Source: an uncultured bacterium (GTDB taxonomy: Bacteria; Patescibacteriota; Minisyncoccia; Phycocordibacterales; PALSA-1337). Taken from it: a stretch of DNA of 56,517 nucleotides. A model generated the notes under the pieces. The model did no database searches, was not told where the DNA came from, and worked only from the letters and a program-made list of their open reading frames with translations. The stretch's first letter is position 1; the number at the start of each line of letters is the position of its first letter. The position numbers and the translations under genes were made by a program. Where the stretch lies: positions 1 through 56,517 of the forward strand of contig CAIMKX010000009.1 in assembly GCA_903842025.1 (NCBI GenBank), read 5' to 3'. Positions 7,596 through 55,229 of the stretch are shown in pieces.

Positions 7596-9554
7596 CTAAT
7601 TGCCAGTGACTATCTCATACCCCTGCATGAAAGAAGGATCCGTGCTGAACCTGGTGGTCAGAGCGCCTTGCTGACTGCTGAGCGATGTGCCGGTAAAGCT
7701 ATCGGTCGCCGACAAGGAAGCTGGATTGACCAGAGTCGGAGATTGGCCGGTCTGGGTGATGCTCGGAAAAAAGGAGATCTGGAAAGCAACCTCCCGACGC
7801 TTGGAGGACTTGAGGGTATAGGCGGAAACGTTTCCGACATTCCAGGTCACCAGACCGCTGTTCTGGTCATAGCTCACGTCTTCGGAAGCGGGACTGACGG
7901 AATTCAACCATTTGACGTAAGGCGGCAAAGTCGCCGTCACGACAGCCCCGCCGACGGCGCTCGAGGCATTGTCGACGTCCCAGATCACCGTGTAAGTCGT
8001 AGCTTGATCGACTCTGGGCGGTATCGGACCGCTGTTGGTGAACGGACCGCTAGTATGGACTAGGCGTCCGGACAAAGCGACGTTGGAGGAGATCTTGATG
8101 TTCCTGGCCACGGCCGCCGTAACGCTCTGCGAGACGTTGGTCTCCTGCGTCCGGTTGCCGGAGACGCTAGCGACCATGGAGACGACCGGATTGACGATGG
8201 TATTCGCCGACGTGCCGTTGTCTCGCGGAACTATCGAGAAAGTCACCGCGCCCCCTTCCCCGGCCGAAACCGAGGCGAACTCAGAATTGGTCTGTCGGCT
8301 CCAGGTGATGGTGTTGTTGGCAGAATCAAAATAGCCGCTGTCGGGCGTGACCGAGGCCCGATCGTAGGCCGTGCCGGAAAGTTTGACGGAAATCTGCATA
8401 TTGGAGACTGAAACCGGCAGATTGTTGAGCCAGGAAATGATGATTCTTTGGCTCTGGCCAAATTGGCCGATGTGATCACTGGCGGTCTGATCGCTGTCAA
8501 CGGCGATGCTCAATGAAATGAACGGTTTCTGAATGATGATATCCTGCTCAATCGAGGTAAATTGCGTACCTATGACTTTCGGATTGTCAGAGCTCTTAGT
8601 CCCCACGGCAAAATGAAAGGCCCGATTGTCGCTGTCTTCGCCTGTCAAAGAGCCGTGGATCGTGATGGTCTTTTGTCCGCCAGCCGGCAGATCGCCGATG
8701 CTCCAGGTTGCGTTGTCGCCGACGGACGGAGCCGACGAAGAGATGAATTTGTAACCGAAAGGAAAATCTCCTTTGAGCAGGACATTTTTGAGGATCTGCT
8801 GGGAATTGGACTTGAGGCTGACTTTCAGGTCAAATTCCTGGCCTGAGGCGATCTCCTTGTAGGTCGAAACGGCCAAGCTCACCGGCGCGGAGCCGAGAAG
8901 AATGTCATAGGATTTGCTCTTGGTGAAGACTGCAGTCGATCCTTTGACGTTGTAGGTCATGGAGACGACGATCTGTTTCTGGAGATTTTCCTCGCCGTAA
9001 ATGATGGCGGAGACGGTGTCCTTCACAGACTGACCGGCGGTCATATTGCCGATGAATTTGTGGTAGGTTTTCAAAGGTTGGCCGGGGTCGGCGGAGTCGA
9101 TCGAGCCGGCCGGAAAGGAAACTGTGAGATCAGCGAGCTGAAGCTCAATGTTGTTCTTGTTGGTGGCAACGATATCAAAAGAAACCGGTGTCCCCCCGGC
9201 CACCGAGACTGGTCCGCTGATCTGGATGCTGATATTGTCTCCGGAAATGATGTTGGAACCATTCAGGAAAAGATAGGCGCCGAAACCGAGAGCGGCCAAG
9301 CAAAAGATGGCCGAGACAATAAATAATTTTGTGAAAAAAGACATTTTGTGGTGCTCTTGGTATTGCTCGTTGAGGTCAAATCCTGGCTTTGACTCCAATA
9401 CGGGCAATCTATCCCACTCAGTTTTCAATTCACTTCCCTGTCCTGTTTCTGACTGAAGCTTGCGACGAGTGCGCACATCTGGGGCCGTACGCGAGTAGAG
9501 CGATTTCTTGAGCTCATCAATGTAGGAATTGTCTTCAGAAAGAGGCACGCACAT
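7596..9554 (-). CDS. membrane-anchored protein with repeated Ig/CARDB-like beta domains
   Basis: 652 aa. Cytoplasmic N-terminus, single TM (FFTKLFIVSAIFCLAALGFGAYLF), then Ser/Thr/Val-rich beta-repeat ectodomain. Family assignment is tentative. Confidence 0.55.
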   Translation of the reverse strand: MCVPLSEDNSYIDELKKSLYSRTAPDVRTRRKLQSETGQGSELKTEWDRLPVLESKPGFDLNEQYQEHHKMSFFTKLFIVSAIFCLAALGFGAYLFLNGSNIISGDNISIQISGPVSVAGGTPVSFDIVATNKNNIELQLADLTVSFPAGSIDSADPGQPLKTYHKFIGNMTAGQSVKDTVSAIIYGEENLQKQIVVSMTYNVKGSTAVFTKSKSYDILLGSAPVSLAVSTYKEIASGQEFDLKVSLKSNSQQILKNVLLKGDFPFGYKFISSSAPSVGDNATWSIGDLPAGGQKTITIHGSLTGEDSDNRAFHFAVGTKSSDNPKVIGTQFTSIEQDIIIQKPFISLSIAVDSDQTASDHIGQFGQSQRIIISWLNNLPVSVSNMQISVKLSGTAYDRASVTPDSGYFDSANNTITWSRQTNSEFASVSAGEGGAVTFSIVPRDNGTSANTIVNPVVSMVASVSGNRTQETNVSQSVTAAVARNIKISSNVALSGRLVHTSGPFTNSGPIPPRVDQATTYTVIWDVDNASSAVGGAVVTATLPPYVKWLNSVSPASEDVSYDQNSGLVTWNVGNVSAYTLKSSKRREVAFQISFFPSITQTGQSPTLVNPASLSATDSFTGTSLSSQQGALTTRFSTDPSFMQGYEIVTGN

Positions 9555-9761: not shown

Positions 9762-10358
9762 TTACAAATGCGATTCTTTCAAAGCCCTATTAATATGCCG
9801 GTTGATTTCCGCTCTCTTTGAATTCAATTCATTGATGAGCTCAAGAGAAAGGTTGTCAGATTTCAATTCAACCTCTGAATTCAAAGCGTCGCTGACATAA
9901 CCAAGACGATATAGGATCCTAAGGACCATAAAGGATTCCAGCGTCTTCAGTTGCTCGTCATCAAATCCAGTCGTGCTCCTTATAAAATTCGCAAATGATT
10001 CAATACACTGGAATAATTCCGAATGAGCTTGCTCGCCTTGCAGGAGGCGGCGCAAGATCAATGAAACAGGCGCAATAATTGCCAGTGATGATTTCTTCTT
10101 TTCCGGAGAAACATCATCATCGACTTTCCATTCCTGTGCACCAACCAGACGCCAATATTCCTTACCTTTGACCAGAGAGAAAATGCCGAATGAATAATTC
10201 TGGGTCTGATACCTTAATTTTGATTTTTCCAGCCGGATACCCTGCGCCACCGCCCTGACCAATCCAAAATCACGGGTGAAAATAGACAAGGTCTTCCCCG
10301 CTTCGCCATAAGCGCGGGAATCAATAATCAGACCGGGGGTTGTTTGGATGTCGTACAT
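9762..10358 (-). CDS. recO: DNA repair protein RecO
   Basis: ORF 9762..10454 trimmed to MYDIQTTPGLIIDSRAYGEAGK.. (OB-fold N-terminus typical of RecO). Upstream codons (CHSRFRGND) come from hairpin repeat B3. Confidence 0.75.
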   Translation of the reverse strand: MYDIQTTPGLIIDSRAYGEAGKTLSIFTRDFGLVRAVAQGIRLEKSKLRYQTQNYSFGIFSLVKGKEYWRLVGAQEWKVDDDVSPEKKKSSLAIIAPVSLILRRLLQGEQAHSELFQCIESFANFIRSTTGFDDEQLKTLESFMVLRILYRLGYVSDALNSEVELKSDNLSLELINELNSKRAEINRHINRALKESHL

Positions 10359-10385
10359 TTGTTTAATCAAGAAAGTCCCTTTATT

Positions 10386-10411
10386 GTCATTCCCGCGAAA
10401 GCGGGAATGAC
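10386..10411. repeat. family B solo hairpin (B3)
   Basis: Reads gtcattcccgcgaaagcgggaatgac. Lies between the ileS stop and the recO start. Confidence 0.8.
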
Positions 10412-10428
10412 AAACCAAATATTTGGTC

Positions 10429-13400
10429 TTAATAGAGTTTAAACTCATCCCCAAACTTGATCTCCACCAACCCCGTCGTTTTCTTGATCAGCTTTTCATT
10501 CTTGGAAATAAGTTCTTTCAGATCTGTTGTAGCCATTAGGTTTGCAGAATCGCCGACAGATAAGCCTTTTTCTTTGCGCATATCCTGAATCTTCCGCAGA
10601 AGTTCCCTGACCTGACCCTCCTCTATGAGTTCCGGCGTCATTGTCGTGTCCAATTCTACTTCAGTCTTGATATCCGAATCAAACGAAACTTCTTTTACAT
10701 TAACTTCATCTTTAATGAGATCAATGAGATGTTGATTCAATGTTAGTACTGCGGTTGTGGTATTCAACGATATCAGCGGTTGCCTAACATTAATTTTCGC
10801 CATCATCCTGGCCTCAAGGCCCTTTGAGGACAGTTCACGCACAACCTTCATTGATTCTATTAATTCTGAATCAACTTTGCCTGAAACTGGCCAATCTTCC
10901 AAATGAACGCTGTCCAATTCGCCGCCGGCTTCGCGATACAATTCTTCGGCAAAGAAAGGGGCGAACGGCGCCATTATTTTGGCGAGTGTTATCAGAACAT
11001 AGCGCGTGGTCGATAACGCTTCATTTTTATCTTTTCCATTCTCTTTGAATCGGTCGCGGGAACGACGAAGATACCATTGCGACAGATCGGCAATAAAATC
11101 GCGGATCGCCCGAGTTGGTTCGAGGAATTTGTATTCATCAAGTTTGGTCGTGACTTCTTTATTGAGTTCATTCAAGAGAGAAATGATCCACTTATCCAGA
11201 ATATTTTTGCTGGCAGGGATTGGGAGTGGCCTGGCCTTATTTTCGCCGGCGTAGAGTTTGTAGAATGAAAGGACATTTGAGACTAGGTTGAAGACTTTCT
11301 TGACTATCTCATCGACGGTCTTCTCGTCAAAATTCTTGGATTCGCCTGGTTGGTTGATCGAATACATCCAGAATCTGGCGGCGTCAGCGCCATATTTTTC
11401 CATTATGTCGAATGGATTGACGATATTCCCTATCGACTTGGACATCTTCTTGCCTTCAGGATCGAGGATGTGGCCAAGACAAATGACATTCTTGTAAGCC
11501 GGACCTTTGCCCATGAGCGTACCGATGGCGTGCAGTGTATAGAACCAACCGCGAGTCTGGTCGATGGCCTCGGAAATAAAATCGGCCGGAAAACCGACTT
11601 TGTCGATATATTCCTTATTCTCAAAAGGATAGTGATCCTGGGCAAATGGCATGGCTCCGGAATCGAACCAGACGTCCATGACTTCCTTGATTCTTTTCAT
11701 TTTTCCGCCGCATTCGCAATCCAAAGTCACCTGATCGATATTCGGACGATGAAGGTCAAGCTCGTATTCAGAGTTGCGCGGAAGGATCTTATATTCAAGA
11801 GGTTTGATTTCCGCCTTTTCTAAATACACTTCACCTTTTGGTTTAGCCACTAAGGATTGATCGATATCGTGTCCTTGAGCGGCTGCGCTCATCATCCAAA
11901 GAGGACCCGCGTGACTGATGATAAGAATATTTTTGCCCTGATATTTCGATTCAGTTTCCTCCAAGAATCTTCCCATACGCCTTTTTTGATCATAACGATT
12001 TTCAACACCCTTCTTGTTACCCGTAAAATAGTCTCTACGGTTTTCATATAATCCGCTTAAATCCGCTTCCGTCGATCCTTCAAAATCCCCCATACCCATT
12101 TCACGGAGACGATCATCATAAATAATCTGGCCTTTGTCATAACCTATAACATCAGAAAAGATTTCTGCCGTTTCTTTCGTCCTAAGGATCGGCGATGAAA
12201 ATACTAGATCAATCTTATGCTTTAATCCCTCGGCACTTTCTTTGACTTTAGTTTTTCCAAGTTCAGTCAAATGAAAAGATTTTGACATATCTGAATTCAA
12301 AATATCGCGAACATTATTCTCCGCCTCGCCATGCCTCATCACCCAATATTTATTCTTCGGCTTTTTGCTTATCTCCTCCACAGAACCGACAACTTTCCTT
12401 TTATTGCATTTCTCGCACAACCAAATAGGCAGAGGTGTGCCCCAATAGCGCTCACGGGAGATGGCCCAGTCCTTGATCTCCGAAAGCCATTCGCCAAAGC
12501 GGCCGTCTTTGATATATTCAGGCTCCCAGTTAATACTTTTATTACCCTTTACCAAATCATTCCTAAGAGCTGACATCTTGATATACCAAGAGTCGCGGGC
12601 GTAATAAATGAGTGGTGTCTTGCAGCGCCAACAATGAGGATAAGTATGCTTGTACCATTCCTGACTAAAGAAAAGATTGCGCTTTTTCAAATCCTCGATG
12701 ATATCGACATCCAAAGTCGGTTTACCCTTGTCATCTTTTTCTTTGACAAAGCGGCTGGACAAATAGCCCATATTTTGTTTAAATGTCCCGTCTTCATTGA
12801 CTAGATGAACCTTAGGAAGTCCAACAGCTGTTCCCAATTCAAAATCTTCTTGGCCGTACATGACAGCCGTGTGAACTATTCCCGTTCCATCCTCGGTCGT
12901 CACGAAATCGGCGGCATAGACTTTGAAGGCATTTTTTAATCGTGGTCTTTCGGTTTCCGAGATGCTTTCTTTTAGATATGGGAATAGTGGCTCGTATTCC
13001 AAATCGACAAGGTTTCTGCCTGTAAACTGATAGCCCATGTTAGGATCTTCAAGATTAAGATGCTTAGCTCGATCAACAGCAGCAATATGATACTCCCCAT
13101 GAATTTGATAAGCTCTATACGACATATCTAAATTAACAGCGAGCGCAACATTCCCTGGTAAAGTCCACGGTGTCGTCGTCCAGGCAAGTAAATAGACATC
13201 GCCTTTAATGCCAATCGTCTCAGGATTTTTAACCTTAAATTTAATCGTCAACGACAAATCCTTAACATCCTGATACCCCTGCGCCAATTCATGCGAAGAA
13301 AGTCCAGTACCACATCTCGGGCACCACGGCACAACTTTATAGTCTTTATAAAGAAGCTTCTTCTCCTCAACGGTCTTCACAATATTCCAAATCGATTCGA

Positions 13401-13887
13401 TGTAATCAGGCTTGTAGGTAATATACGGATCTTTGAGATCAACCCAATAACCCATCCGAGCCGTGAAGTCTTCCCATTCATGGACATATTTCCAGACGCT
13501 TTCCTTGCACCTGTCGTTGAATTTGCCAATGCCGTATTCTTCGATATCTTTTTTGACCTTTAGGCCTAGCTCCTTTTCAACCTGCAATTCAACCGGCAAG
13601 CCATGGGTATCCCAACCGCCTTTGCGACGGACATGGAAACCTTGCATGGTCTTGTAGCGAGGAATGGCATCCTTGAAAGCCCGGGCTTCGAGATGATGGA
13701 TGCCGGGATGGCCGTTGGCGGTCGGAGGTCCTTCGTAGAAGATGAATTCGCCTTTTGGTGATCTCTTCTCCAAACTCTTCTCGAATATCCCCTTCTCTTT
13801 CCAATAAGCCAAAATCCGCTCCTCGCGCTCGGCGTGGAGGCTCTTTGTCGTTACTTTTGGTTTGTCCTGATTTTCAGCTTCGGCCAT
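10429..13887 (-). CDS. ileS: isoleucyl-tRNA synthetase (type 2) with inserted histidine-phosphatase domain
   Basis: Motifs HPGIHH (HIGH), KMSKSIGN, CP1 editing WTTTPWTLPGN, and Zn knuckles CEKC / CECGG. Length 1152 aa is about 200 aa longer than usual because of an RHG-phosphatase insert (see findings). Confidence 0.95.
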   Translation of the reverse strand: MAEAENQDKPKVTTKSLHAEREERILAYWKEKGIFEKSLEKRSPKGEFIFYEGPPTANGHPGIHHLEARAFKDAIPRYKTMQGFHVRRKGGWDTHGLPVELQVEKELGLKVKKDIEEYGIGKFNDRCKESVWKYVHEWEDFTARMGYWVDLKDPYITYKPDYIESIWNIVKTVEEKKLLYKDYKVVPWCPRCGTGLSSHELAQGYQDVKDLSLTIKFKVKNPETIGIKGDVYLLAWTTTPWTLPGNVALAVNLDMSYRAYQIHGEYHIAAVDRAKHLNLEDPNMGYQFTGRNLVDLEYEPLFPYLKESISETERPRLKNAFKVYAADFVTTEDGTGIVHTAVMYGQEDFELGTAVGLPKVHLVNEDGTFKQNMGYLSSRFVKEKDDKGKPTLDVDIIEDLKKRNLFFSQEWYKHTYPHCWRCKTPLIYYARDSWYIKMSALRNDLVKGNKSINWEPEYIKDGRFGEWLSEIKDWAISRERYWGTPLPIWLCEKCNKRKVVGSVEEISKKPKNKYWVMRHGEAENNVRDILNSDMSKSFHLTELGKTKVKESAEGLKHKIDLVFSSPILRTKETAEIFSDVIGYDKGQIIYDDRLREMGMGDFEGSTEADLSGLYENRRDYFTGNKKGVENRYDQKRRMGRFLEETESKYQGKNILIISHAGPLWMMSAAAQGHDIDQSLVAKPKGEVYLEKAEIKPLEYKILPRNSEYELDLHRPNIDQVTLDCECGGKMKRIKEVMDVWFDSGAMPFAQDHYPFENKEYIDKVGFPADFISEAIDQTRGWFYTLHAIGTLMGKGPAYKNVICLGHILDPEGKKMSKSIGNIVNPFDIMEKYGADAARFWMYSINQPGESKNFDEKTVDEIVKKVFNLVSNVLSFYKLYAGENKARPLPIPASKNILDKWIISLLNELNKEVTTKLDEYKFLEPTRAIRDFIADLSQWYLRRSRDRFKENGKDKNEALSTTRYVLITLAKIMAPFAPFFAEELYREAGGELDSVHLEDWPVSGKVDSELIESMKVVRELSSKGLEARMMAKINVRQPLISLNTTTAVLTLNQHLIDLIKDEVNVKEVSFDSDIKTEVELDTTMTPELIEEGQVRELLRKIQDMRKEKGLSVGDSANLMATTDLKELISKNEKLIKKTTGLVEIKFGDEFKLY

Positions 13888-13931: not shown

Positions 13932-15638
13932 TTACATCTTTTCCGGCACCCCGATACCCAATAGGTTCAAACCATTTTTAATGGTAATCGAAACCGCTTT
14001 GGTCAATGCCACTTTGTAGAGTGAATCTGGATCCTTCTCATCAACAATCTTTCCTTGACCGTACCAAGAATTGAAAGCGCCGGCTAATTCCGTCAAATAT
14101 GTAACTATAAGATGCGGCGCATATTCCTTCCCCGCCCTTTCGACAACCTCAGGAAAACGTACGATCAATTTCTCAACCAGATTTGGTTTGTGATCTTGAG
14201 GAACTTTGAACTCTATCGGCTTATTGGAATCGATAATCCCAAAAGATGCAGCTTTTTCCAAAATAGATTTGGCGCGAACGTAAGTGTATTGGAGATATGG
14301 ACCGGAATCACCCTCGAAAGAGATCGACTTGTCGAAATCGAAGATAATATCGCCGCCGATCGCTTGGCGCAGAATGGAATACTTGATAGCACCGATCGTG
14401 ACCATGTCGGACATGGTCTCGTCCACATTTCGATCTTTAACCTTCTCGAGAACAAGCGCCTTGACGTCATTGATCAGGCTTACCGCAGTGATCACTTCCC
14501 CCGTCCTTGAGGACATCTTACCGCTCGGCAGTCGAAGCATCCCGTGGCCGATATGAAGAGTTTTCCCCGCCAATTCCGGAAAAATTAGTTTCATGGCTTC
14601 AAGCAAGACATTGAAGTAATCGTTGATCTCATTGCCGGTAAGAACGATCGACTTTTCATAAGGATATTTGTCATGCTTGATCTTCACCAAACCAAGCTCT
14701 TTGGCCTCGTAGGTCGGCAGACCGTTTGAATTGACAAAAACTCTTGTATGGAGTTTTGGATTGACTTTCTGTGCCTCAAAAACGACAGCGCCATCGCTTT
14801 TTTCAAAGACTTTTCCTAAATTATCCTCAACCATTTGTTTGCCATAGCCTGCGACTTCGCTTTCAGAGAAGAAATAGTCGAACTTCATTCCCAAAGCTTC
14901 ATATCGCTTGGCGAAGAATTCCAAGGACTTTTTCTTGCCGATCTCATAGACTTCATTGATGGCCTTGTCGCTTTTCTCATAAAGTTTCTTGTTGACCTCT
15001 TCAACGGACTTTTTGAAATCCGTGTCAGCGTCATAGAGTTTATTACCGGCGACATAATCAACACCCAAAGCTAATCCGTTTAAATCAGACTCCGTGTGTA
15101 TATCCTTCTTTTTATAAAGAAAATGCGCCACAGCCTTTGCGACATGCAATCCCACGTCGCCTTGATAACAAGCTCTTTTGACCTCTGCGCCATTGGCTTC
15201 GACGATCCTGGAAACAGATTCGCCGATCGTGTTGCTCATCAAGTGGCCAACGTGGAATTCCTTGAAAGGATTTGGATCAGTAAATTCGATTATCGTCTTT
15301 TGCTTTTTAAGATTATTGTTTGAGCCAAATTTATCCCCTTCCTTCAGGGCTCTTTTGATATTTTCCGCGAAATATTCCGCCTTCAAGAAGAAATTGATGA
15401 ATCCCGGACCAGCAATCTCCACTTTTTCTACGAATTTCGGCTGGATCTTCTTGAATTCAATGACGATCTTTTCTGCCAGTGCTTTCGGAGAGATTCCAAG
15501 CGGTTTGGCATTGAGCATCGCTGAATTGCTAGAAAAATCCCCATATTCAGGGTTTTCGGGATAGTTAAGTTTCGGCTGTTCTTCAATCCCACATATCTGA
15601 GCGGCCTTCATCAAAGAATCCAACAATTCTTGTTTCAT
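13932..15638 (-). CDS. argS: arginyl-tRNA synthetase
   Basis: 568 aa. FHVGHLMSN (HIGH-like), N-terminal Arg_tRNA_synt_N-like region, C-terminal DALR-type anticodon-binding domain. Confidence 0.95.
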   Translation of the reverse strand: MKQELLDSLMKAAQICGIEEQPKLNYPENPEYGDFSSNSAMLNAKPLGISPKALAEKIVIEFKKIQPKFVEKVEIAGPGFINFFLKAEYFAENIKRALKEGDKFGSNNNLKKQKTIIEFTDPNPFKEFHVGHLMSNTIGESVSRIVEANGAEVKRACYQGDVGLHVAKAVAHFLYKKKDIHTESDLNGLALGVDYVAGNKLYDADTDFKKSVEEVNKKLYEKSDKAINEVYEIGKKKSLEFFAKRYEALGMKFDYFFSESEVAGYGKQMVEDNLGKVFEKSDGAVVFEAQKVNPKLHTRVFVNSNGLPTYEAKELGLVKIKHDKYPYEKSIVLTGNEINDYFNVLLEAMKLIFPELAGKTLHIGHGMLRLPSGKMSSRTGEVITAVSLINDVKALVLEKVKDRNVDETMSDMVTIGAIKYSILRQAIGGDIIFDFDKSISFEGDSGPYLQYTYVRAKSILEKAASFGIIDSNKPIEFKVPQDHKPNLVEKLIVRFPEVVERAGKEYAPHLIVTYLTELAGAFNSWYGQGKIVDEKDPDSLYKVALTKAVSITIKNGLNLLGIGVPEKM

Positions 15639-24879: not shown

Positions 24880-25923
24880 TCAATCCCAGAATATTCTCTC
24901 GATTTGACCTTGAATTTTTTCGCTTCGGCAATGTTTCAACATTCCAAGATATGAACATATTGAATTCGTAAGCTTTTCCTGGTCTATCAAACCAGTCTCT
25001 AAATCCAACCTTAATCTCGCAATCTTTTTAAGCATCCTTTTCTTCGTGCTTGTTCGGAGAACTTTGTAATGTGGCAAAGAAACGTATCCAAGAAAGTCCG
25101 TCCCCTGATAAATCTTTCTTATTTCTAATTTTCGTGGATGTAAATCCAAATCCATTTCACTTTTAAGAAAATCAGCAATTACCGAAATATGACTTTTAAG
25201 TTGTTCTTTTGATTCATCAAGAATCACAAAATCATCACAATATCTTATGTAATATCTGGCTTTGAGTTTATGTTTAATAAATTGGTCGAATTCATTCATA
25301 TAAATATTGGCAAAAAGCTGACTGGTAACATTACCTAAAGGCAAACCCTTCTCTGGTGTGTGATTAAATGATTCAATAATTTCTTGAATGAAAATAAGCA
25401 ATTTTACGTCCTGAATTTTTCCTGAAATTAGTCGAATTAACTTATCATGATCAACAGAATCAAAGAATTTTCTGATGTCACATTTCAAGACATAAGCTTG
25501 CCGTGTGAAATTTTGCGAAACTTTTCGTGAAAATACCTCCAATCGTTTGACTCCAGCATGAGTCCCTTTTTGATTTCTGGAAGAATAAACGTCATAGATA
25601 AATGAAGAATTAAATACATGGTACAATTTCCGGTGCACCGCCTGGAAAAGCACCCGATCGCGGACACTGGCAATATGAATGGTCCGTTTCTTTGGGTCTT
25701 GAATTATTGAAACCTTGTAAGGATCAAGTCTGAATCGGCCATTTACCAAATCCTCATGTAATATAAAAAGGTTTTCTTCCAAACGAAGATTGAATTCAGC
25801 CACATCTTTATTTGATTTCTTACCTTTACTGAATTCTTTCCAGGCGGCAAAAATATTTTCGATGGAAATTACATCACAAAAATCACAACTATTATGACCC
25901 CCCCCCGACACCACATTGCCCAT
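24880..25923 (-). CDS. diversity-generating retroelement reverse transcriptase
   Basis: RT motifs including LPLGNVTSQ ([I/L]GxxxSQ, DGR-type motif 4) and YCDDF (YxDD). The 347-aa protein has no maturase or endonuclease domains. It is adjacent to the TR/VR pair. Confidence 0.9.
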   Translation of the reverse strand: MGNVVSGGGHNSCDFCDVISIENIFAAWKEFSKGKKSNKDVAEFNLRLEENLFILHEDLVNGRFRLDPYKVSIIQDPKKRTIHIASVRDRVLFQAVHRKLYHVFNSSFIYDVYSSRNQKGTHAGVKRLEVFSRKVSQNFTRQAYVLKCDIRKFFDSVDHDKLIRLISGKIQDVKLLIFIQEIIESFNHTPEKGLPLGNVTSQLFANIYMNEFDQFIKHKLKARYYIRYCDDFVILDESKEQLKSHISVIADFLKSEMDLDLHPRKLEIRKIYQGTDFLGYVSLPHYKVLRTSTKKRMLKKIARLRLDLETGLIDQEKLTNSICSYLGMLKHCRSEKIQGQIERIFWD

Positions 25924-40717: not shown

Positions 40718-42070
40718 TCACCAGGACATACCGGTCAAACGCTTTTCCTGATCGAAACGCAAGGCGGCATAGATGCTCGGATTGCGAATAGCCAGGATTT
40801 GCAGAGCAGCAAGCACAGCGTTTGCCGGTTCAAGCACCGTCATGACCGGAACATTGCTCGGCGTGCGGAGTGACGACCAGACATCTTCAGGGAATTCCTT
40901 GTACCCTGCCGGCACCGTGATGACCGGGACCGTGGAATTTGCTGCCAAGACCGGACCGGCGCCGTTGCTTCGTCCAATGTAGGCGATGATGACCGAGTCG
41001 CACGGCTCCTCCTGTAAATGCTGCTGCAGGAGTTTGTAAGCCAGCACTGGTTGTTTGTGCACCGAACAAGTGATCGGCAATAGTTGGAACTGCGGCTTGG
41101 GCTCAAGCTTCATAATCAGCTCCTCGACCGCCGTGAAGTGATCCTTTTCCGATCCGCACCAAACGATGAGGCGTTGGGACGGGACCCCAAAACGGTCCGT
41201 CGCGTCCGCGACTTCGCGGTACTTGGCCGTGACTGTGGTGAGATCACCGCCGTCGCGATACACCTGTTTGTCGATGTACCCGCCGGAATGATCTACCACC
41301 CGCCATGAATCATTGTCGATGACGTCGGCCAGCCGGAGCTTACCTTCGGTATTGATACCGAACTCGACCTTGAAGTCCACGAGCTTGCGCCCTTGGAGCT
41401 GCCAAGCCTTCTCGAGCACCAAGAACGTCTGGCGAGCAATGTTGCCCATCTGTTGAAGAAGTTCAGGTTCATTCGGATAAGTAAAGACTTCACCGAAAAG
41501 TAGTGTCCGGAATGGTTTCTGGCCAACCAGCACACCTTTCAGTGTCGTCTTTCTTTCTTCCGACGTGTGACCTGGATAATACAAGTCAATCTTTCCTCCG
41601 GAAACCAGCTCCATAAGCGGGTCATCTTTGACAAGATCGTGATCGCACCACTTCTTGCCATGAGTCTTCAGAAAGAACTCCACGACCAGCCTCGGGAAGA
41701 TGTGTCCCTTCGGCAAATGGGGGTTACGGTCAAGATATGATCCATGCGCTTCGCGCCGGACCACCACCTCATACGGCAACATGACACATTTGTCAGCGAG
41801 AAACTCCGTGGCGCCATCTTGACCTTCGAAGGCCACTGGTATGTCGCATGCCCTGAGAAGCCGGAACACGTTACAGGTTGTGCGCGTGGCCAAGGCGGCT
41901 TTGCCGTTGATGATGTCGTGCTTGGCGCCGTCACCGGCGGTGATGTCGTCTTTCGATTCAATCCTGACTCGGGCAGGACTTTCCGGGATGGAGAAGATTC
42001 GTTTGGTCTTCCCCTCGTTCATTGGCTGAACTTCAGTCGTTTGCATATGTATTTTCCTTTCTTTGTACAT
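40718..42070 (-). CDS. bifunctional SAICAR synthetase / AIR carboxylase (PAICS-like PurC-PurE fusion)
   Basis: N-terminal EGKTKRIF..SKDDITAGDGAK (PurC) and C-terminal GRSNGAGPVLAANSTVPVITVP (PurE). Also ADVIDNDSWR and DVWSSLRTPS blocks. Confidence 0.88.
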   Translation of the reverse strand: MYKERKIHMQTTEVQPMNEGKTKRIFSIPESPARVRIESKDDITAGDGAKHDIINGKAALATRTTCNVFRLLRACDIPVAFEGQDGATEFLADKCVMLPYEVVVRREAHGSYLDRNPHLPKGHIFPRLVVEFFLKTHGKKWCDHDLVKDDPLMELVSGGKIDLYYPGHTSEERKTTLKGVLVGQKPFRTLLFGEVFTYPNEPELLQQMGNIARQTFLVLEKAWQLQGRKLVDFKVEFGINTEGKLRLADVIDNDSWRVVDHSGGYIDKQVYRDGGDLTTVTAKYREVADATDRFGVPSQRLIVWCGSEKDHFTAVEELIMKLEPKPQFQLLPITCSVHKQPVLAYKLLQQHLQEEPCDSVIIAYIGRSNGAGPVLAANSTVPVITVPAGYKEFPEDVWSSLRTPSNVPVMTVLEPANAVLAALQILAIRNPSIYAALRFDQEKRLTGMSW

Positions 42071-43341: not shown

Positions 43342-44466
43342 CTACTTCATCTGCAGAGTATTGGGAATACCATCCTTAATCCTGACAAGAGCCTTACGAT
43401 ATTGACCATAATCTAGTATATGCTCATGATGTAACCTACCAATAAGCAAGCCGGGATGAATATTTAGTTCTAGACTAACAGATTTTATCGTCATCGCATC
43501 AACATTCGCGCGACGGAGATCTTTCACAACATCATCAAACCCAAAAGCGTTTGATGCAAAATCATTAGCCTCATTTTCTTCTTTCTCTGTTCCTGTATCA
43601 TTGATATCATCAGAGAAAACCCTATTAGGATGTTTAAGTACGTGACCAATCTCGTGCAGAAGCGTGAAATAAAAATTGTCTATTCGATCATACCGCAAAG
43701 ACATGATGATTACTGGCTCATTTGGTGTAATCCAGGTGACCGCGCCATCTACGCGCGTCTTAAAAAAGTGGGGCAAAAATATAACTCGAACACCAATATG
43801 ACCCAACTTAGTAATAATTTCCTTAATGCCATCATTATTTTGTGAATACTGTTTAATTTCAAAAGCGAATTTCTCTAGCGCGGTTGAATCATATTTCCCA
43901 ACCCCTTTTATTTTTTCAGCCTCTTTTTTTCCTAGTAACACCCACGCTTTTAGATAATTCGAAACTATATCTCCAGTCTTTGAAGTTCGGAAATTTGCTG
44001 TACAAACATCTTTTCTGAATTGATCCAAATTAGACATGTTGAACAACTCCAAGACTGCTTTACAGAGCTCACTGGTATTCTTCATTCTTGGCGGTAAATA
44101 TTTGCGTCGAATCAATTCCGGCACAGGAAAAAGCGAGTATAGTTCAGACCGCTTACTTACCTCACTCTCTTTAAATTTTGATTTATCCTTAAGAAGATAT
44201 AGGTCATATTCGGATTGCATGCCGAGCCAGAGATCCGCAGATGTTCCTAGCGCAGCCGCAATAACCCGGGCCGATTCGGGAGTAATCGCTCTCTTCCCAT
44301 TTATAATCTCATTAACCGTTCTGGCAGGCCGGCCTATGATTTCTGAAAATTCTGACTGAGTCAAACCACGAGCCTCAAGCTCGTCCTGCAAAATTTCTCC
44401 GGGATGAGCAACCAAGAAAGGAGTCTTATTCTTTTTTTCTTCTGAATTAATCATGATTTTATTCAT
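43342..44466 (-). CDS. higA: HigA-type XRE antitoxin fused to ImmA/IrrE (COG2856) zinc metallopeptidase domain
   Basis: N-terminal HPGEILQDELEARGLTQSEFSEIIGRPARTVNEIINGKRAITPESA (HigA HTH). C-terminal LLHEIGHVLKH (HExxH). Confidence 0.85.
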   Translation of the reverse strand: MNKIMINSEEKKNKTPFLVAHPGEILQDELEARGLTQSEFSEIIGRPARTVNEIINGKRAITPESARVIAAALGTSADLWLGMQSEYDLYLLKDKSKFKESEVSKRSELYSLFPVPELIRRKYLPPRMKNTSELCKAVLELFNMSNLDQFRKDVCTANFRTSKTGDIVSNYLKAWVLLGKKEAEKIKGVGKYDSTALEKFAFEIKQYSQNNDGIKEIITKLGHIGVRVIFLPHFFKTRVDGAVTWITPNEPVIIMSLRYDRIDNFYFTLLHEIGHVLKHPNRVFSDDINDTGTEKEENEANDFASNAFGFDDVVKDLRRANVDAMTIKSVSLELNIHPGLLIGRLHHEHILDYGQYRKALVRIKDGIPNTLQMK

Positions 44467-44752
44467 AATGATTGGAAATTTCCTCGATCACTATGGTTCT
44501 CTTACTTAATTCCTCGATTGAAAAGATGAGCCTGTATTGCTTGTTGAGCCTCAGCGAAAACTTATTCTCATGCCCCTTTAGTTTCTCAAAATGATTCCCC
44601 TTAATTTCACGTATATCACCCTCATGCTTCGCATTTTTAATGATTTGAATCTTCTTGAAAAACGCTCGGGCCACAAAATCGGGGTATTTACTAATCCCTT
44701 TTCCCTCGTAATACAAGCCCTCCAATTCTGAGCTTTGGAACCGAAAATTCAT
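44459..44752 (-). CDS. higB: HigB-family (RelE/ParE-fold) toxin
   Basis: 97 aa with ..KLKGHENKFSLRLNKQYRLIF motifs of the plasmid-maintenance killer (HigB) family. Overlaps higA by 8 nt. Confidence 0.8.
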   Translation of the reverse strand: MNFRFQSSELEGLYYEGKGISKYPDFVARAFFKKIQIIKNAKHEGDIREIKGNHFEKLKGHENKFSLRLNKQYRLIFSIEELSKRTIVIEEISNHYE

Positions 44753-44889
44753 ATTTTAATATCGACCTATTATTGAGCTTTTTGCTCATGATTAACATTA
44801 TAGCCTCCTAACACTCTAAATGCAAACAGATATTTACAATGTGTGTATAACTCCAATTTCTGAACATTACATCAGTTGTAACTATTCAT

Positions 44890-44919
44890 TTGACAATATT
44901 GCTCATCAGGATTTATAAT
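44890..44919 (+). promoter_or_regulatory. sigma70-like promoter upstream of the HNH gene
   Basis: TTGACA-18 nt-TATAAT, 60 nt upstream of ATG 44980. Confidence 0.55.
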
Positions 44920-44979
44920 CGAACACATGTGGCTTCAGGTCGGGAAGTTCCACCCCTTTACTAATTAATAATAACTCAA

Positions 44980-45258
44980 ATGGCGTTTACAACCTATTTG
45001 ATTGAGCTCGTTTGGCTGAAGGCTTTCGTTGTCCCAGGCAGAGATTCAGGATTCTTGAGAAAGGACATATGTGGTGCATGGATCCGTCGAGACCAACATG
45101 GAAACCGAGATAGCGAGTACGGATGGGAAATTGATCACATCCGGGCAGTCGCAAACGGCGGGAGCGACTCGATCCTCAATCTCAGACCATTGCATTGGCA
45201 AAACAATGCTAGGAAATCTGACGGCAACCTAGTTTGCCCAGTTACCGCAGCTAGATAA
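44980..45258 (+). CDS. stand-alone HNH endonuclease
   Basis: Contains EIDHIRAVANGG...NLRPLHWQNNARK (H-N-H). Length 92 aa. Confidence 0.8.
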   Translation: MAFTTYLIELVWLKAFVVPGRDSGFLRKDICGAWIRRDQHGNRDSEYGWEIDHIRAVANGGSDSILNLRPLHWQNNARKSDGNLVCPVTAAR

Positions 45259-45296
45259 AAGAAAACTGACACCTGGTCAGTTCCCTTCCTGTTCAG

Positions 45297-45326
45297 AATC
45301 GCTCGTCACACGATGAGCGATTTTGT
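45297..45326 (+). terminator. intrinsic terminator after the HNH gene
   Basis: aatcgctcgtc-aca-gatgagcgatt followed by tttgt. Confidence 0.55.
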
Positions 45327-45663
45327 ATTAACATTTTATCATTGATATCCGGTATTCAGAAACCAGCTTTGTTTGCATGAAATCTCCTTTAAAAGAGACG
45401 ACAAATATTGAGGACTGGATTCATGAAAGTATGAACTGGTCTACTTAGTGAACCACTTTATCCACATACGCACTATTTTCATTCTTATCGGGCCCGCTGC
45501 TATACTAGCTAGCGAGTAAGAGTAATTTAATAACGAACTGGCGACACATTCGCAATTAAGTCTGGTCGGAAACACCGAAGGACTTGCAACGTAAACTTGT
45601 CTTCATAAGAAATTATGAATACGGGCTTGCGTCGCAAGTCCTTTTTTTGTTTTTTCGCCACTT

Positions 45664-45927
45664 ATGAAAATTAATATGAAAAATACAATTGAATTAACCG
45701 ACTTCTATCGCACCTCCGACCTCGCTTGCGCGGCGGCCGTTTCCCTATTCGTACCACTCGATAGCATCGATAAGACCGACAGACGCCGGGCATTTTTCAT
45801 ATTCGAACGTAATAGCGAACTGGATGGATTGCTCGAGGCATTCTGGAAAGGCACGTTGCAGGTCGAGCCGCGTGCTTACTTCGATCAGATCAAAGCTCTG
45901 AAGACACGCTTGTACGAAATCGACTAG
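45664..45927 (+). CDS. small hypothetical protein (DUF5659-like, phage/mobile-element associated)
   Basis: 87 aa with DLACAAAVSLFVPL....FIFE pattern. The family call comes from memory and is tentative. Confidence 0.45.
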   Translation: MKINMKNTIELTDFYRTSDLACAAAVSLFVPLDSIDKTDRRRAFFIFERNSELDGLLEAFWKGTLQVEPRAYFDQIKALKTRLYEID

Positions 45928-46028
45928 CATGGCCGCTCAATCCTGCAAAACACAGACGGTCCCGGTACTAACGCCGAAGAACGAGCAGATCTTCATTGAC
46001 CGCTTGATAGAGATTTTGCTCATGCAGG

Positions 46029-46520
46029 TTGAGCCTAATGAAAATGAACATGGAACAAAAACCAAAAGGATTCTTCATCGTGCATAAAGAGGATGTCCTG
46101 GTAAGATTGGCCCCTCTCAATGACGCCCAGTTCCGTCTTCATTTTGTGAGTGTCGCCCAAGCCGACTTCAAAGACGGTCCCGACCGCAAAACTGGCACCA
46201 TCAATGCCACTTTTTCGCAGATGTTGGCTGGCCCTCTTCAAACATGGTCCAAGAGCAAGCTTAGCCGTGTCAGAAAAGCGCTTATCGATAAAATCGGCTC
46301 CTTGGTACGAATCGGCAAACAAAAGGTTATGATCGCTCACTATCCCCTGTATCGAGCCAAGGTGAAAGATGCCGGACTCATATTCTCACTGATAAAACCT
46401 AAAGTCCTGCTCACAGAACAGGATGTTCTACAGGCGAAACAACAGCGAACTATGGAAGTGAATCAGGGTCTGGCAAATCTGGCCAAGAAGTTCACTATTC
46501 CGCCAAGCAGTGTTCCATAG
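46029..46520 (+). CDS. hypothetical protein (mobile-element context)
   Basis: 163-aa ORF upstream of the recombinase remnant. Confidence 0.4.
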   Translation: MSLMKMNMEQKPKGFFIVHKEDVLVRLAPLNDAQFRLHFVSVAQADFKDGPDRKTGTINATFSQMLAGPLQTWSKSKLSRVRKALIDKIGSLVRIGKQKVMIAHYPLYRAKVKDAGLIFSLIKPKVLLTEQDVLQAKQQRTMEVNQGLANLAKKFTIPPSSVP

Positions 46521-46617
46521 GCGGAACCTATTCGTGGCTAAGAAAAAGAAGAAAAGAAACGCAAAACCTTGATAAGGTGTGGACAATCACAAAAGCGCAA
46601 AATCGCATTCTCATAAA

Positions 46618-48216
46618 ATGGCTACGGATAAGGGTTTTGCCAAAATAGATGGCCATCGATGATAGCGGCGAGTACAAACTCGCGCCGGATGGCGTCTACA
46701 ACGATCCCGGCAAGAGCGCGACGAACATGAAGCGTCCCGGCTTGCAGGATATGCTTCTCCGCATTCAGGAAGACAAAACGATACGAGCTGTCTTCGTTCA
46801 GGACACCGACCGCTTGGCACGCAATACGACTGACCACCTGTGACTATCAAGGCTTTGCTCGCCAAGCACGAGGTGAAGCTCATCTCGGTATCGCAGCCTG
46901 GCCTCGAAGATATGCCCGAAGGCAACCTCATGGATACCATCATCGCCGGCTTCAATCAATTCCAGTCACAGCTGACTGCACGCAAGTCGACCAAGAGCAT
47001 GGCGCAGAAATTCAGCGAGGGTGGTTGGCCGACACATGCGCCCATCGGCTACCTCAATGTCGGCGAGAAGGATAACGAGAAAAAGCGAACAGTAATCGTC
47101 GACCCCATTCGAGGACCGCTCATCCAGGAAGCCTTCAAGCTCTATGCCACCGGCGACTACTCGGCCGTGGCCGTGCTCGACATCATCCATGAGAAAGGCT
47201 TTCGTGCCCGTAACGGCAAGCGCATCATGCTCGGCAAATTCGCGGACATGTTCAAAAATCATTTTTACTACGGCGAGATGCGCTGGCGCGGACTGATCGG
47301 TCCTGGGAAGCATCCATCACTCATAGACAAGGAGCTCTATGACCGTTGCCAAAGGATTAGCGAGGAACACAACCATCGAGCTTGCCGCCGGCATAAGCAC
47401 AACTTCATTCTCCGAGGATTTATCCGCTGTGCCATCTGTGGTTGCCGATACACGGCAGAGCATAACGTTCCGAAAAAGATTTCCTATTATCACTGCAATC
47501 GCTACAAGAATAATATTCCCGGAAACGTGAAATGCATGGACCAGTACGTCGAGATGAGCAATCTGGAAAATCAGGTCCAGGAGCAATTCAACCGCCTCCA
47601 ATTTACCGATGACTTCATCGCCAAGATCGAAGCTCGGCTCAAGATTGTCTATGAGGAAAAGAAAAGCTCGGTGACCGACGAGAAAAGCCGTATTATGCAG
47701 GCCAAGCTTTCCGTCGAGAGCAAGCTCGAACGCGCAGAACATAAATTAATCGACGGTGTCATAGATGACCAGTCATTCGAACGCCTCAAGAAAACGTATC
47801 GCGAACAGATAGAGGACTTCGAAAATCAGATCGCCAAGCTGGACCGCTCCAAGAACATCAAGGTAGACGTCATTCAACAGGTCCTCGCACTTACTCGGGA
47901 CATCGGGACCTCATATAGCAATGCCAAGCCGGAGTTGAAGCAACTCTACCTCGGACTTTCCTGGCATCATTTCTTGGCCAAGGAGAAAAAAATCGTCGAA
48001 GCGGTGAAATCGCCAATCGTCGTGGCTTTGGAAGAAGTCGGGGCGATCACTGATGCCGCCGGAGACGCCACGAAAACCGCCATTCCTAGCCCTATGTCAG
48101 GCATGGACTCGTCGGTTATAAATAATACCGTGAGGGGTCGCGTGGTAGACGTATTCAGAACCAGTATCTATGCTTCTCCTAGCCAAATCTTTACGGAATA
48201 CGCCACAACTAGGTAA
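46618..48216 (+). pseudogene. large serine recombinase, N-terminally decayed and frameshifted
   Basis: Resolvase-domain fragments occur in three frames (MATDKGFAKIDG / DDSGEY..YNDPGKSATNMKRPGLQDML..DRLARN / TIKALLAKHEVKLISVSQP). No catalytic-Ser region is found. These are followed by an intact recombinase domain, zinc ribbon (CAICGCRY..YYHC) and coiled-coil. Confidence 0.75.
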
Positions 48217-48365
48217 CTTTGCATGCTCGTTGTACTAATTTATGACTTACCCCACCAGCTACCACACTACTATAAAATTTCACAGGAGATGTATCCTATT
48301 CAAATCAATCCTAACCTTATCAACAGTTGAATCGCAACATCTCATGTTAAAATAGTCTTGTACTT

Positions 48366-48800
48366 ATGAGTGAAAACTCCCTCGTCAATCTAATGCTCTC
48401 ACACCAAGTCACTTTTCCTTGGCGTTCTATGTCGAATTTTCAACATAGAACAGAAGTAAAAGTCACATCGAACAGAGTTGACGTTGTTTACTTTGAACAA
48501 CTAAATGCTTCTGGTATTGGTTTCATCGCAGCAGTCGAAGCTAAACTGCATGACTGGCGAAAGGCTATCCGACAAGCTCACAGAAATAAACTATTCGCAG
48601 ATAGAGTTTATGTTGCGATGCCAACCCAATATGCTTCAGCAGCCATTGAGAATATCTCTGTGTTTAGACAGGCGTCGATTGGATTAATTTTGGTAGATAA
48701 TGAACGTTCTCGGATTTATTACCACCCTCCAATGAATACGCAAAGGTCGTCAAAACACGTGATTAAAGTCAAACAAACCTTAGCTTCTCAGAATAATTAG
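48366..48800 (+). CDS. PD-(D/E)xK nuclease-fold-like hypothetical protein
   Basis: RVDVVYF...GFIAAVEAKLHDW gives a D-x19-E-A-K arrangement. Length 144 aa. Its end overlaps the convergent kinase gene by 4 nt. Confidence 0.45.
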   Translation: MSENSLVNLMLSHQVTFPWRSMSNFQHRTEVKVTSNRVDVVYFEQLNASGIGFIAAVEAKLHDWRKAIRQAHRNKLFADRVYVAMPTQYASAAIENISVFRQASIGLILVDNERSRIYYHPPMNTQRSSKHVIKVKQTLASQNN

Positions 48801-50662: not shown

Positions 50663-50824
50663 TATTAACTACGCTAACTCAAACACAAAGGCATGTCAAC
50701 TATTATAATAGGTGATTTATTATCTGTACCAGATTCATAAATAAAAATATAAAGTGGTGGTTCCTTATATTAACTGTTACAAAAGTTAATCATCCAAAAT
50801 TCCTATATACAACAATACCTAAAT

Positions 50825-51031
50825 ATGTATGATCCATTCACAACATACATGGACTACCGCCGAAAAATACTTTCAATCCGAATGGAATACCTAAAGGGTA
50901 TTATTGACTTGGATACTGCAAAGGCTCGAATACAACCACTCCTCGATGAGATGAATATACGGGGTTTGGTAATCGCAAAGCAACACAGCAGAAAATTCAC
51001 GAAGTTAACCTTTGGCTACGTGATGAGGTGA
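50825..51031 (+). CDS. small hypothetical protein
   Basis: 68-aa ORF in the gap between the kinase gene and the RM operon. Flanked by a related ~25-bp direct repeat (50708-50735 / 51070-51098). Confidence 0.3.
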   Translation: MYDPFTTYMDYRRKILSIRMEYLKGIIDLDTAKARIQPLLDEMNIRGLVIAKQHSRKFTKLTFGYVMR

Positions 51032-51116
51032 GATATTACAGCTCTTCGTTGGTTAAAATAAACTTACACAATAATAAGTGATATTCAATCTGTATACTTT
51101 GTCGTCCAAGTCGTCT

Positions 51117-51611
51117 TTAACTCCAAATCTCACTTGTCCTAGGTTCAAATTGCTTTAGAATTTTTAAATATTCAACCTGTATATTCGACTCTACCCATTT
51201 AGGATACAGTTGACCAATCTCACCATTCTTCATGGAAACATCATTACACGGCTCGAAGAAAAAACCATCTGGTGATGCGACAAATAACCATGATGGATTC
51301 CAGATTTTCAAAGTCTGATCAACAATCTCCTTTATCTTCTTACTATCACGGCGAGTGCAAAACTTGACTTCGACTAGATATACTTCGGTTTTATCTTGAG
51401 ATATGAGCACAAAATCAGGTGCATTCCTGATATTTGCAATGACGGCTTTTATTTCCACCAGATGTTGATATTGGGCAAGCTCGGGTAGCGTATATTCGTA
51501 ACCAGATCTAAGAATAGTAAATCGTCCTGATTCACGAAACATTTGTTCAAAAATAGTTTCCGCAATTCTCCCCTTTATAAGTTCGCGAGTAAATTCAATA
51601 TTAGTCATCAA
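51117..51611 (-). CDS. small PD-(D/E)xK (Hjc/endonuclease-like) protein
   Basis: KGRIAE...PDFVLIS...VYLVEVKF follows the E...D...ExK order of restriction-endonuclease-like folds. Lies 6 nt downstream of the MmeI-like gene. Confidence 0.55.
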   Translation of the reverse strand: MMTNIEFTRELIKGRIAETIFEQMFRESGRFTILRSGYEYTLPELAQYQHLVEIKAVIANIRNAPDFVLISQDKTEVYLVEVKFCTRRDSKKIKEIVDQTLKIWNPSWLFVASPDGFFFEPCNDVSMKNGEIGQLYPKWVESNIQVEYLKILKQFEPRTSEIWS

Positions 51612-51616
51612 TTTTA

Positions 51617-54334: not shown

Positions 54335-54559
54335 AAATGCTTATAGAATAGAGTGTATCACACTGCAATTTATAAATCAGTTTGGAATTATTCGCAAAAA
54401 ACGAAGATAGACATAAAAATGGACATGGTGTATCATCCCGCATTTTTAAAAACTGCGATTCGATGCCTCTGTAACTTTCTACCTCTGATTAGTAATCTTG
54501 CCCCATATTACAGATTCAAGCGTTTGTCGGCATGATGCACAAGCAACACATCTTGGCCT

Positions 54560-55213: not shown

Positions 55214-55229
55214 ATATATTATGTGAAAA

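Follow-up and report, generated by a model that had tools for sequence, protein, structure and literature searches.

Aminoacyl-tRNA synthetases (aaRSs) gain editing, tRNA-binding, and signaling domains. In the isoleucyl-tRNA synthetase (IleRS) of Thermus thermophilus, a zinc motif has been assigned to the CP3 subdomain, and the topology of CP3 is different in every solved IleRS (PMC7191050), which argues that CP3 is a variable and permissive region. In type 2 IleRS (IleRS2), a class I signature motif of the form GXHH is functional and gives mupirocin hyper-resistance (Brkic et al., PMC10485003). In yeast IleRS (ScIleRS), the linker between CP2 and CP3, ARDWNVSRNRYWG, lines the pocket that receives the CCA end of the tRNA (PMC7955072). 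Here, we analyze the ileS gene of an uncultured bacterium of the Patescibacteriota, which lies on a 56.5-kb stretch of DNA (contig CAIMKX010000009.1) referred to below as the window. The predicted product is a type 2 IleRS of 1152 aa with a histidine phosphatase nested inside it. The event belongs to the domain accretion known from aaRSs, and what has been acquired here, repeatedly, is apparently an active enzyme. No earlier description of an apparently active phosphatase inside the catalytic body of an aaRS was found in the literature searched.

A histidine phosphatase within a type 2 IleRS

The fused ileS is a single uninterrupted open reading frame (ORF) on the minus strand (positions 10429-13887; residue numbers below are those of its 1152-aa product). 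In an NCBIfam profile search, the protein scored 893 bits against the IleRS equivalog TIGR00392, for which the cut-off is 621.4. The N-terminal part of the synthetase (aa 1-509; 12361-13887, minus strand) matches PF00133 over residues 25-513, aligns to residues 5-477 of the Priestia megaterium IleRS2 structure 8C8W, and runs from the first half of the Rossmann fold through the CP core, the CP1 editing domain, and CP2 into CP3, of which it contains the first half. The C-terminal part (aa 709-1152 plus the stop codon; 10429-11763, minus strand) matches PF08264 over 898-1038 and PF19302 over 1076-1147, aligns to 8C8W 485-905, and supplies the other half of the Rossmann fold, followed by the anticodon-binding domain and, at the C terminus, DUF5915. 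The Pfam families on the flanks of the insert are thus tRNA-synt_1, Anticodon_1, and DUF5915.

Between these two parts lie ∼199 aa (aa 510-708; 11764-12360, minus strand), delimited by the break in the IleRS alignment and by comparison with insert-less IleRS of the Moranbacteria type. The alignment to 8C8W stops at query residue 509 (chain residue 477) and restarts at 709 (chain residue 485), so that ∼199 aa in the window protein occupy the place of ∼8. A preliminary description, made from the sequence letters and a list of ORFs, had placed an insert of ∼195 residues in a continuous reading frame, at a spot where ordinary type 2 IleRS has only a short spacer. Translation of the ORF and the 509/709 break bear this out: positions 11773-12360 translate to residues 510-705 (PKNKYWVMRHGEAEN...KILPRN), and the ordinary spacer amounts to ∼8 residues at the break, within a knuckle loop of roughly 20 to 25. 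The insert consists of the histidine phosphatase domain followed by a C-terminal helix and strand that lead the chain back to CP3. Nucleotide composition shows no step at either junction.

The insertion splits the second zinc knuckle, and its position agrees with the preliminary description. Cys491 and Cys494 of the first half (CEKC; 12406-12417, minus strand) lie on one side and Cys724 and Cys726 of the second half (CEC; 11710-11718, minus strand) on the other, and the sequences that flank the insert are WLCEKC and LDCECGG. Each of these four cysteines is kept in at least 90% of 120 relatives, among which both zinc knuckles are conserved. Comparison with insert-less relatives indicates that the interrupted loop is ∼20 residues long, from CxxC to DLH(K/R)P. 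The window counterpart of the yeast CP2-CP3 linker is IKDWAISRERYWG (aa 471-483; 12439-12477, minus strand), assigned by homology to ScIleRS 453-ARDWNVSRNRYWG-465, and the insertion point is ∼27 residues beyond it. By analogy with the yeast enzyme, the phosphatase would be rooted in a subdomain that starts at the rim of the CCA pocket, and we infer that it may lie near that pocket.

The synthetase itself appears complete. The class I signature motif is the swapped form GIHH (aa 62-65; 13693-13704, minus strand, read from the translation); GxHH occurs in 118 of the 120 relatives and HIGH in the other 2. KMSKS is at aa 814-818 and WFDSG at aa 740-744. The CP1 editing motif WTTTPWTLPGN (aa 236-246) is invariant in the 120 relatives, as are Asp348 and, within GTGIVH, every residue but the Ile, and the CP1 structures 1WK8 and 1UE0 are matched by the window protein. 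Of the synthetase modules that had been called intact from the letters alone, the description holds for KMSKS, for the editing motifs of CP1, and for the anticodon-binding domain, and the supposed HIGH is really the noncanonical GIHH. By profile, signature motif, and domain content, the window protein classifies as a type 2 IleRS. No second IleRS is encoded elsewhere within the window.

The phosphatase core (aa 515-677; 11857-12345, minus strand) matches Pfam His_Phos_1 (PF00300) with an E value of 2.4e-29 and 102.8 bits against a cut-off of 21.7. We compared the catalytic positions across 294 domains, a set that took in divergent representatives and free-standing paralogues as well as domains inserted at other sites. 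The Arg and His of the RHG motif (Arg518, the nucleophilic His519, and Gly520; 12328-12336, minus strand) are present in 293 of the 294, the sole exception being an incomplete domain. The second phosphate-binding arginine, Arg569 (12181-12183, minus strand), is likewise kept in 293. The general acid/base Glu596, within the PhoE-type motif REMGMGDFEG (12100-12102, minus strand), is Glu or Asp in 290, and the second catalytic histidine, His659 (11911-11913, minus strand), is present in every domain that reaches that column. The six-residue catalytic signature RHNREH is exact in 259 of the 294 domains. Among the 120 relatives, the invariant positions of the insert are Arg518, His519, Asn525, Gly544, Ser565, Arg569, Glu596, Glu629, Arg637, and His659. 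All four phosphatase motifs quoted in the preliminary description are in the translation, its assignment to branch 1 of the histidine phosphatases agrees with the PF00300 match and the full catalytic set (Arg518/His519, Asn525, Arg569, Glu596, His659), and the profile search together with the 294 domains showed the catalytic core to be intact, where a missing core would have spoken against that assignment.

Profile searches against the Protein Data Bank (PDB) and structural models place the domain among small phosphatases. In the profile search, PhoE (1EBB/1H2E) was best at 4e-31, followed by PspA (4IJ5), 9MMH, and CobC (6NRU); solved cofactor-dependent phosphoglycerate mutases (dPGMs) matched profile positions ∼7 to 115 only, that is, the N-terminal half. 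REMGMGDFEG aligns to REIHLGDWEG of PhoE, and His659 is followed by Ala-Gly-Pro. The dPGM counterparts have a Gly-Asn pattern after the second His and the acid/base motif ERHYG. An AlphaFold2 model of the domain alone had a predicted local distance difference test (pLDDT) score of 88.6, and Foldseek matched it to 9MMH, 4PZ9, 4IJ6, and 1H2E with template modeling (TM) scores of 0.69 to 0.76 and probability 1.00; further neighbors, at TM ∼0.7, were TIGAR and CobC. The AlphaFold2 model of the whole protein, built from the family alignment, had a mean pLDDT of 89.4 and a predicted TM score of 0.81, with pLDDT 94 to 98 in the insert, and matched IleRS2 8C8V with a target TM of 0.80. By profile, catalytic set, and predicted fold, the insert is a branch 1 histidine phosphatase; its sequence marks it as a small phosphomonoesterase that resembles PhoE, PspA, and CobC, fits no single equivalog, and is not a glycolytic mutase. 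As judged from sequence, the window gene has a real bifunctional architecture in which both catalytic centers are predicted to be intact.

Distribution, gene neighborhood, and other insertion sites

In a search with the full protein, the best 120 matches were 1100 to 1240 aa long and 58 to 72% identical, and all 120 combined PF00133 with PF00300; the named organisms among them were Patescibacteria, Paceibacterota, Taylorbacteria, and Parcubacteria. The identical protein is found on 8 contigs from four sources. A phmmer search with the insert and both flanks against 1.84 billion representatives clustered at 50% identity gave 181 proteins at an E value of ≤1e-30, nearly all as one flank-insert-flank match. 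Among the species-representative genomes of GTDB, at least 564 stretches encode a relative of the domain, and the best 80 of these all lie in Patescibacteria IleRS reading frames (Parcubacteria, Paceibacterota, Taylor-, Nomura-, Vogel-, Kaiser-, Wolfe-, and Adlerbacteria, and Minisyncoccia), the 2013 genome RAAC4_OD1_1 being one of them. Of the 80, 75 have IleRS motifs on both sides of the domain in a single ORF; in the remainder, four ended at a contig edge, and two were full-length ORFs whose C-side motif pattern was unmatched. We conclude that the fusion is a clade-wide feature and the normal form of IleRS in a large share of the Parcubacteria/Paceibacteria.

Two technical explanations for the fusion or its apparent breaks were considered and set aside. 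IleRS genes split at the insert were suggested by the short matches P0011, P0021, and P0022, which lie on long contigs and end out of frame, and which we read as sequencing frameshifts. A chimeric join, which would have overturned the preliminary description, was rejected since the same junctions recur in hundreds of independent genome assemblies and composition does not change across them. That description had also taken the embedded phosphatase to be, as far as known, without precedent. No paper that describes it was found: in the literature searched, which included a 2026 preprint on IleRS domain evolution, no phosphatase is described in any IleRS, and we found no curated family for the IleRS-phosphatase architecture. 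A paper on SepRS in Parcubacteria proved to have no bearing on it. The architecture is, however, clade wide and already exists as a Pfam domain combination in public databases, where the NCBI name for these proteins is "class I tRNA ligase family protein."

The fused gene sits in a conserved block. In the window, argS (13932-15638, minus strand; Pfam ArgRS domains) is 44 nt upstream of ileS, and recO (9762-10454, minus strand; RecO_N match) overlaps the ileS stop by 26 nt. Among the 65 informative GTDB loci, 58 have argS upstream of the fused gene, and recO follows it on the same strand at 66 of the 80 loci. This argS-ileS-recO synteny is common to fused and unfused genomes. Downstream of recO, the window block continues with a gene for a DUF11/CLIPPER-type surface protein of 652 aa (7596-9554, minus strand); its GC content is 0.50 to 0.61 compared with ∼0.43 for its neighbors, yet it lies within synteny conserved with the Moranbacteria-type loci.

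No free-standing copy of the phosphatase remains at the 80 fused GTDB loci. The closest free-standing relatives of the insert are proteins of 180 to 210 aa, mostly from Moranbacteria, and we examined seven loci of this type that carry a free-standing phosphatase gene (L081 to L087). Six of them (L081, L082, L083, L084, L085, and L086) have argS on one side of the phosphatase gene and an insert-less ileS (956 to 1010 aa) on the other, and in L081 and L082, the phosphatase gene overlaps the ileS start by 17 nt. Fused and free forms keep the same catalytic and family-specific residues. Two distant relatives from outside the candidate phyla radiation (CPR) have no synthetase gene nearby.

The Moranbacteria-type loci contain two further conserved genes. 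A NUDIX gene (ADP-ribose-pyrophosphatase-like) overlaps the ileS stop in L081 (11622-12161), L082 (6878-7417), L085 (8943-9482), and L086 (9712-10251); as a third partner of the fusion it was rejected, with only 4 weak matches beside fused genes in the 80 loci. A conserved ORF of 50 to 52 aa lies between argS and the free phosphatase gene in L081 (7865-8017), L083 (7841-7996), L085 (4842-4994), and L087 (4839-4997) and is present, unannotated, in L082 and L086. It encodes a basic N terminus and one hydrophobic helix, has no Pfam match on record, and has no equivalent in the window.

The phosphatase domain also occurs elsewhere in IleRS. We call the CP3 position of the window protein site A, a loop ∼75 residues after KMSKS site B, and a position just after WFESG site C. 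Site B is occupied in P0369, where it holds the sole copy, and in P0366, P0378, and the P0304 cluster; site C is occupied in the P0304 cluster and in P0355, where sites A and C are filled and a further copy begins at B but is cut off by the end of the contig. All copies at sites B and C keep the catalytic signature. The IleRS bodies of P0304, P0378, and P0355 are only ∼35% identical to that of the window protein and are nearest to eukaryote/archaeal-like IleRS (yeast 8WND, 714 bits), whereas that of the window protein is nearest to Priestia IleRS2 (813 bits); their sequences thus mark this group as a separate IleRS lineage. This eukaryote/archaeal-like clade includes an IleRS of 1419 aa encoded on a 1.06-Mb contig (L090, 8001-12260; ERZ25074184 contig_3), in which sites C and B each hold an intact phosphatase domain. 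The neighboring genes there encode a true DAHP synthase, PurA, PFOR, and an SLH-domain protein of 1476 aa. In a neighbor-joining tree of the domains, site B copies cluster together and site C copies cluster together, and the tree is star-like and unresolved at depth.

Other enzymes can enter IleRS as well. P0281, a partial protein of 1066 aa from a Joint Genome Institute (JGI) metagenome, has a His_Phos domain at site A (680-854) and a GNAT domain after WFESG (949-1063), both in loops around CP3; in addition, its CP1 editing domain contains an IS200-like Y1 transposase segment (aa 340-461). Its GNAT domain and the existence of an NCBIfam model named "ileS_w_GNAT" suggest that IleRS loops accept enzyme domains more generally.

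Function of the embedded phosphatase

We consider it likely that the window protein is an ancient bifunctional enzyme in which a working type 2 IleRS carries a catalytically competent PhoE/PspA/CobC-type phosphatase in the CP3 knuckle loop. From its conserved residues, the phosphatase is expected to be active through the canonical phospho-histidine mechanism. By the established chemistry of the superfamily, His519 would attack a phosphomonoester to give a phospho-histidine intermediate, Arg518, Arg569, Asn525, and His659 would hold the phosphate, and Glu596 would protonate the leaving group. On the most economical reading, the domain was captured from the upstream neighbor gene into a permissive IleRS loop, possibly through tandem duplication of the phosphatase gene and the 5′ half of ileS followed by an in-frame deletion. 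Made 1:1 with IleRS and held beside it, the domain would act as an autonomous small-molecule phosphomonoesterase.

We lean slightly toward a substrate linked with the reaction cycle of IleRS or with tRNA-Ile, because phosphatase and IleRS are paired again and again: in an operon, in a fusion, and through independent insertions that occupy three sites across two IleRS clades. Fusion, operon adjacency, and repeated insertion in two clades amount to a strong "Rosetta stone" link between the phosphatase and isoleucine charging, and in minimal genomes, retained domains are unlikely to be decorative. For the substrate class, our leading guess is a nucleotide-like monoester, since the nearest characterized relatives act on ribotide-like or small acidic phosphomonoesters.

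Several observations weigh against this overall reading. CP3 is hypervariable and tolerant of insertions, so capture of a neighbor could be neutral. No part of the protein evolves faster than the insert (mean identity to the window protein, 45%, versus 72% for the IleRS body); the invariance of the insert's catalytic residues nevertheless fits purifying selection on catalysis. All NCBIfam equivalog cut-offs were missed, both for dPGM models (dPGM_arch NF038349, the best NCBIfam match, 91.7 versus 225; NF002339, 29.5 versus 316; NF002901, 45.5 versus 261) and for small-phosphatase models (ribazole_cobC, 71.5 versus 162.9; PspA, 44.2 versus 350; PRK13463, 46.3 versus 277), so the substrate cannot be read from the sequence or transferred from PhoE/PspA/CobC-type enzymes. 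The domain has no RNA-binding charge signature (mean isoelectric point [pI], 6.3), which gives no support for direct tRNA binding. In L087, the phosphatase gene adjoins argS with no ileS within 5 kb, and the linkage may therefore be to the aaRS gene cluster overall and not to ileS specifically. Finally, the number of independent insertions is uncertain because the domain tree is poorly resolved. The tolerance of CP3, the fast evolution of the insert, its non-basic pI, and the L087 locus also speak for a frozen accident, in which an unrelated housekeeping phosphatase, encoded beside ileS in a long housekeeping operon, was captured in a tolerant surface loop and kept only as the sole copy in the genome, with no link to aminoacylation. 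The differing CP3 topologies of the solved enzymes would supply the tolerant loop, the phosphatase gene directly upstream of ileS in unfused relatives offers a simple duplication-deletion route, and GNAT domains sit in IleRS loops likewise (P0281, NF040702). This account, the main alternative, is possible, but we hold it to be the less probable one: the pairing is found at three insertion sites, another IleRS clade shows it too and has as many as three intact copies in one protein, the operon arrangement includes an overlap of start and stop, and the fusion has been kept in hundreds of species. Unless proximity is selected for, it is difficult to see why one particular enzyme should have made such a capture repeatedly.

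Accounts that make the phosphatase work directly on the synthetase or its tRNA are doubtful to differing degrees. It seems unlikely that the domain constitutes a third, so far unrecognized catalytic activity of an aaRS, working in cis on the IleRS cycle. Such an activity might clear a phosphorylated block from the 3′ end of tRNA-Ile or from IleRS, as repair or anti-toxin, or might rid the entrance of the active site of a phosphorylated product or inhibitor, and a need of this sort could have driven the repeated capture, as operon partner, as CP3 insert, and in up to three copies elsewhere. We give still less credence to built-in repair or counter-defence on macromolecules as such, in which tRNA-Ile with a 3′-(pyro)phosphate or 2′-phosphate, or IleRS phosphorylated by a toxin, would be restored for charging in cis. 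There are toxins that add pyrophosphate to the CCA ends of tRNAs or phosphorylate the active sites of aaRSs, branch 1 histidine phosphatases include the protein phosphatases SixA, PGAM5, and Sts-1, the insert is rooted close to the homologue of the CCA-pocket linker, and one clade has several intact phosphatase copies around the catalytic core. Against this, the domain surface carries no basic signature, the nearest relatives are all small-molecule phosphatases, protection of one synthetase in twenty would not save translation from a general tRNA toxin, and no cognate toxin is evident beside ileS. That the domain is the organism's glycolytic dPGM, fused for co-expression, is very improbable. 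An archaeal-type dPGM model is its best NCBIfam match, and some free-standing relatives are labeled "probable phosphoglycerate mutase" by JGI, but the score is far under the cut-off, the acid/base motif is of the PhoE type, dPGMs match over one half only, and the structural neighbors are phosphatases. A catalytically dead scaffold domain or a chimeric misassembly has almost nothing to recommend it: fast evolution of the insert is the sole point in favor of either, whereas the catalytic residues are essentially invariant in the 294 domains, and identical junctions without a compositional step recur across independent assemblies and, for the identical protein, across its four sources. A glycolytic dPGM, a pseudo-enzyme, and an assembly artifact are effectively excluded.

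If the link between phosphatase and IleRS is functional, it would add a new step to the maintenance of tRNA-Ile or of IleRS. If it is not, the fusion would be a clean natural case of neighbor-gene capture into a permissive loop. In either case, automated pipelines give these proteins only the generic name, and the embedded domain may be miscounted as a phosphoglycerate mutase in metabolic reconstructions of CPR bacteria.

Other features of the window and comparison with known systems

Away from ileS, the window holds several other features. A 347-aa ORF beside FolD (24880-25923, minus strand) contains an RVT_1 reverse transcriptase domain (E value, 4.5e-25) and could come from a diversity-generating retroelement, a retron, or a group II intron. 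Positions 43342-56141 form an apparent mobile/defense island. Encoded there are a protein that combines a helix-turn-helix with an M78 peptidase, a large serine recombinase (46840-48216), a Ser/Thr protein kinase of the Hanks type (48797-50662), a restriction-modification enzyme of the MmeI type that is complete (51617-54334), and a 3′-5′ exonuclease resembling PolB (54560-55270). A PAICS-like PurC-PurE fusion of 450 aa, with SAICAR synthetase and AIR carboxylase domains (40718-42070, minus strand), adjoins PurB, PurH, and a PurM-like gene, suggesting that this small-genome bacterium retains part of purine synthesis.

The described systems closest to the two halves of the fusion are the PhoE-type phosphatases and the solved type 2 IleRS enzymes. 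Like the insert, the broad-specificity phosphatase PhoE (YhfR of Geobacillus stearothermophilus), the phosphoserine phosphatase PspA, CobC (6NRU, 6E4B), GpgP Rv2419c (4PZ9), and the riboflavin-pathway HFP (9MMH) have the ∼200-aa branch 1 fold, and PhoE-type enzymes share with it the RHG-Arg-Glu-His set and the acid/base motif LrEixxGxwEG. They differ in being free-standing, whereas the insert is nested in an aaRS at ∼23% identity to them and has an additional C-terminal helix and strand that return to CP3. On the synthetase side, the window protein has the full domain set, the zinc knuckle, and the C-terminal domains seen in type 2 IleRS (P. megaterium 8C8U-8C8W; T. thermophilus 1ILE), shares the swapped GIHH with the GXHH subclade, and matches 8C8W at 813 bits. 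The solved enzymes have no second enzyme in CP3, in contrast to the ∼199 extra residues of the window protein.

Two known fusions invite comparison. The NCBIfam model NF040702 ("ileS_w_GNAT") is a precedent for an IleRS with an additional enzyme domain, but the enzyme family is different: the window protein stays far under the cut-off of this model (303 versus 1999 bits), and Pfam shows no GNAT domain in it. Rv2228c of Mycobacterium tuberculosis (RNase H/acid phosphatase, NF005567) also joins a branch 1 phosphatase to a nucleic-acid enzyme, and the insert matches the phosphatase half of this type at 63.5 bits, under the cut-off of 326. By the model positions, however, Rv2228c is an end-to-end fusion of RNase H with a C-terminal phosphatase and not a nested one, and we know of no demonstration that its halves are functionally coupled. 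A further close counterpart is the free phosphatase of the Moranbacteria-type loci (MEP7162340.1, P0035), which belongs to the same family as the insert, has the same conserved residues, and occupies the same syntenic block. It differs in being a separate polypeptide with another C-terminal tail, encoded beside an IleRS that lacks the insert.

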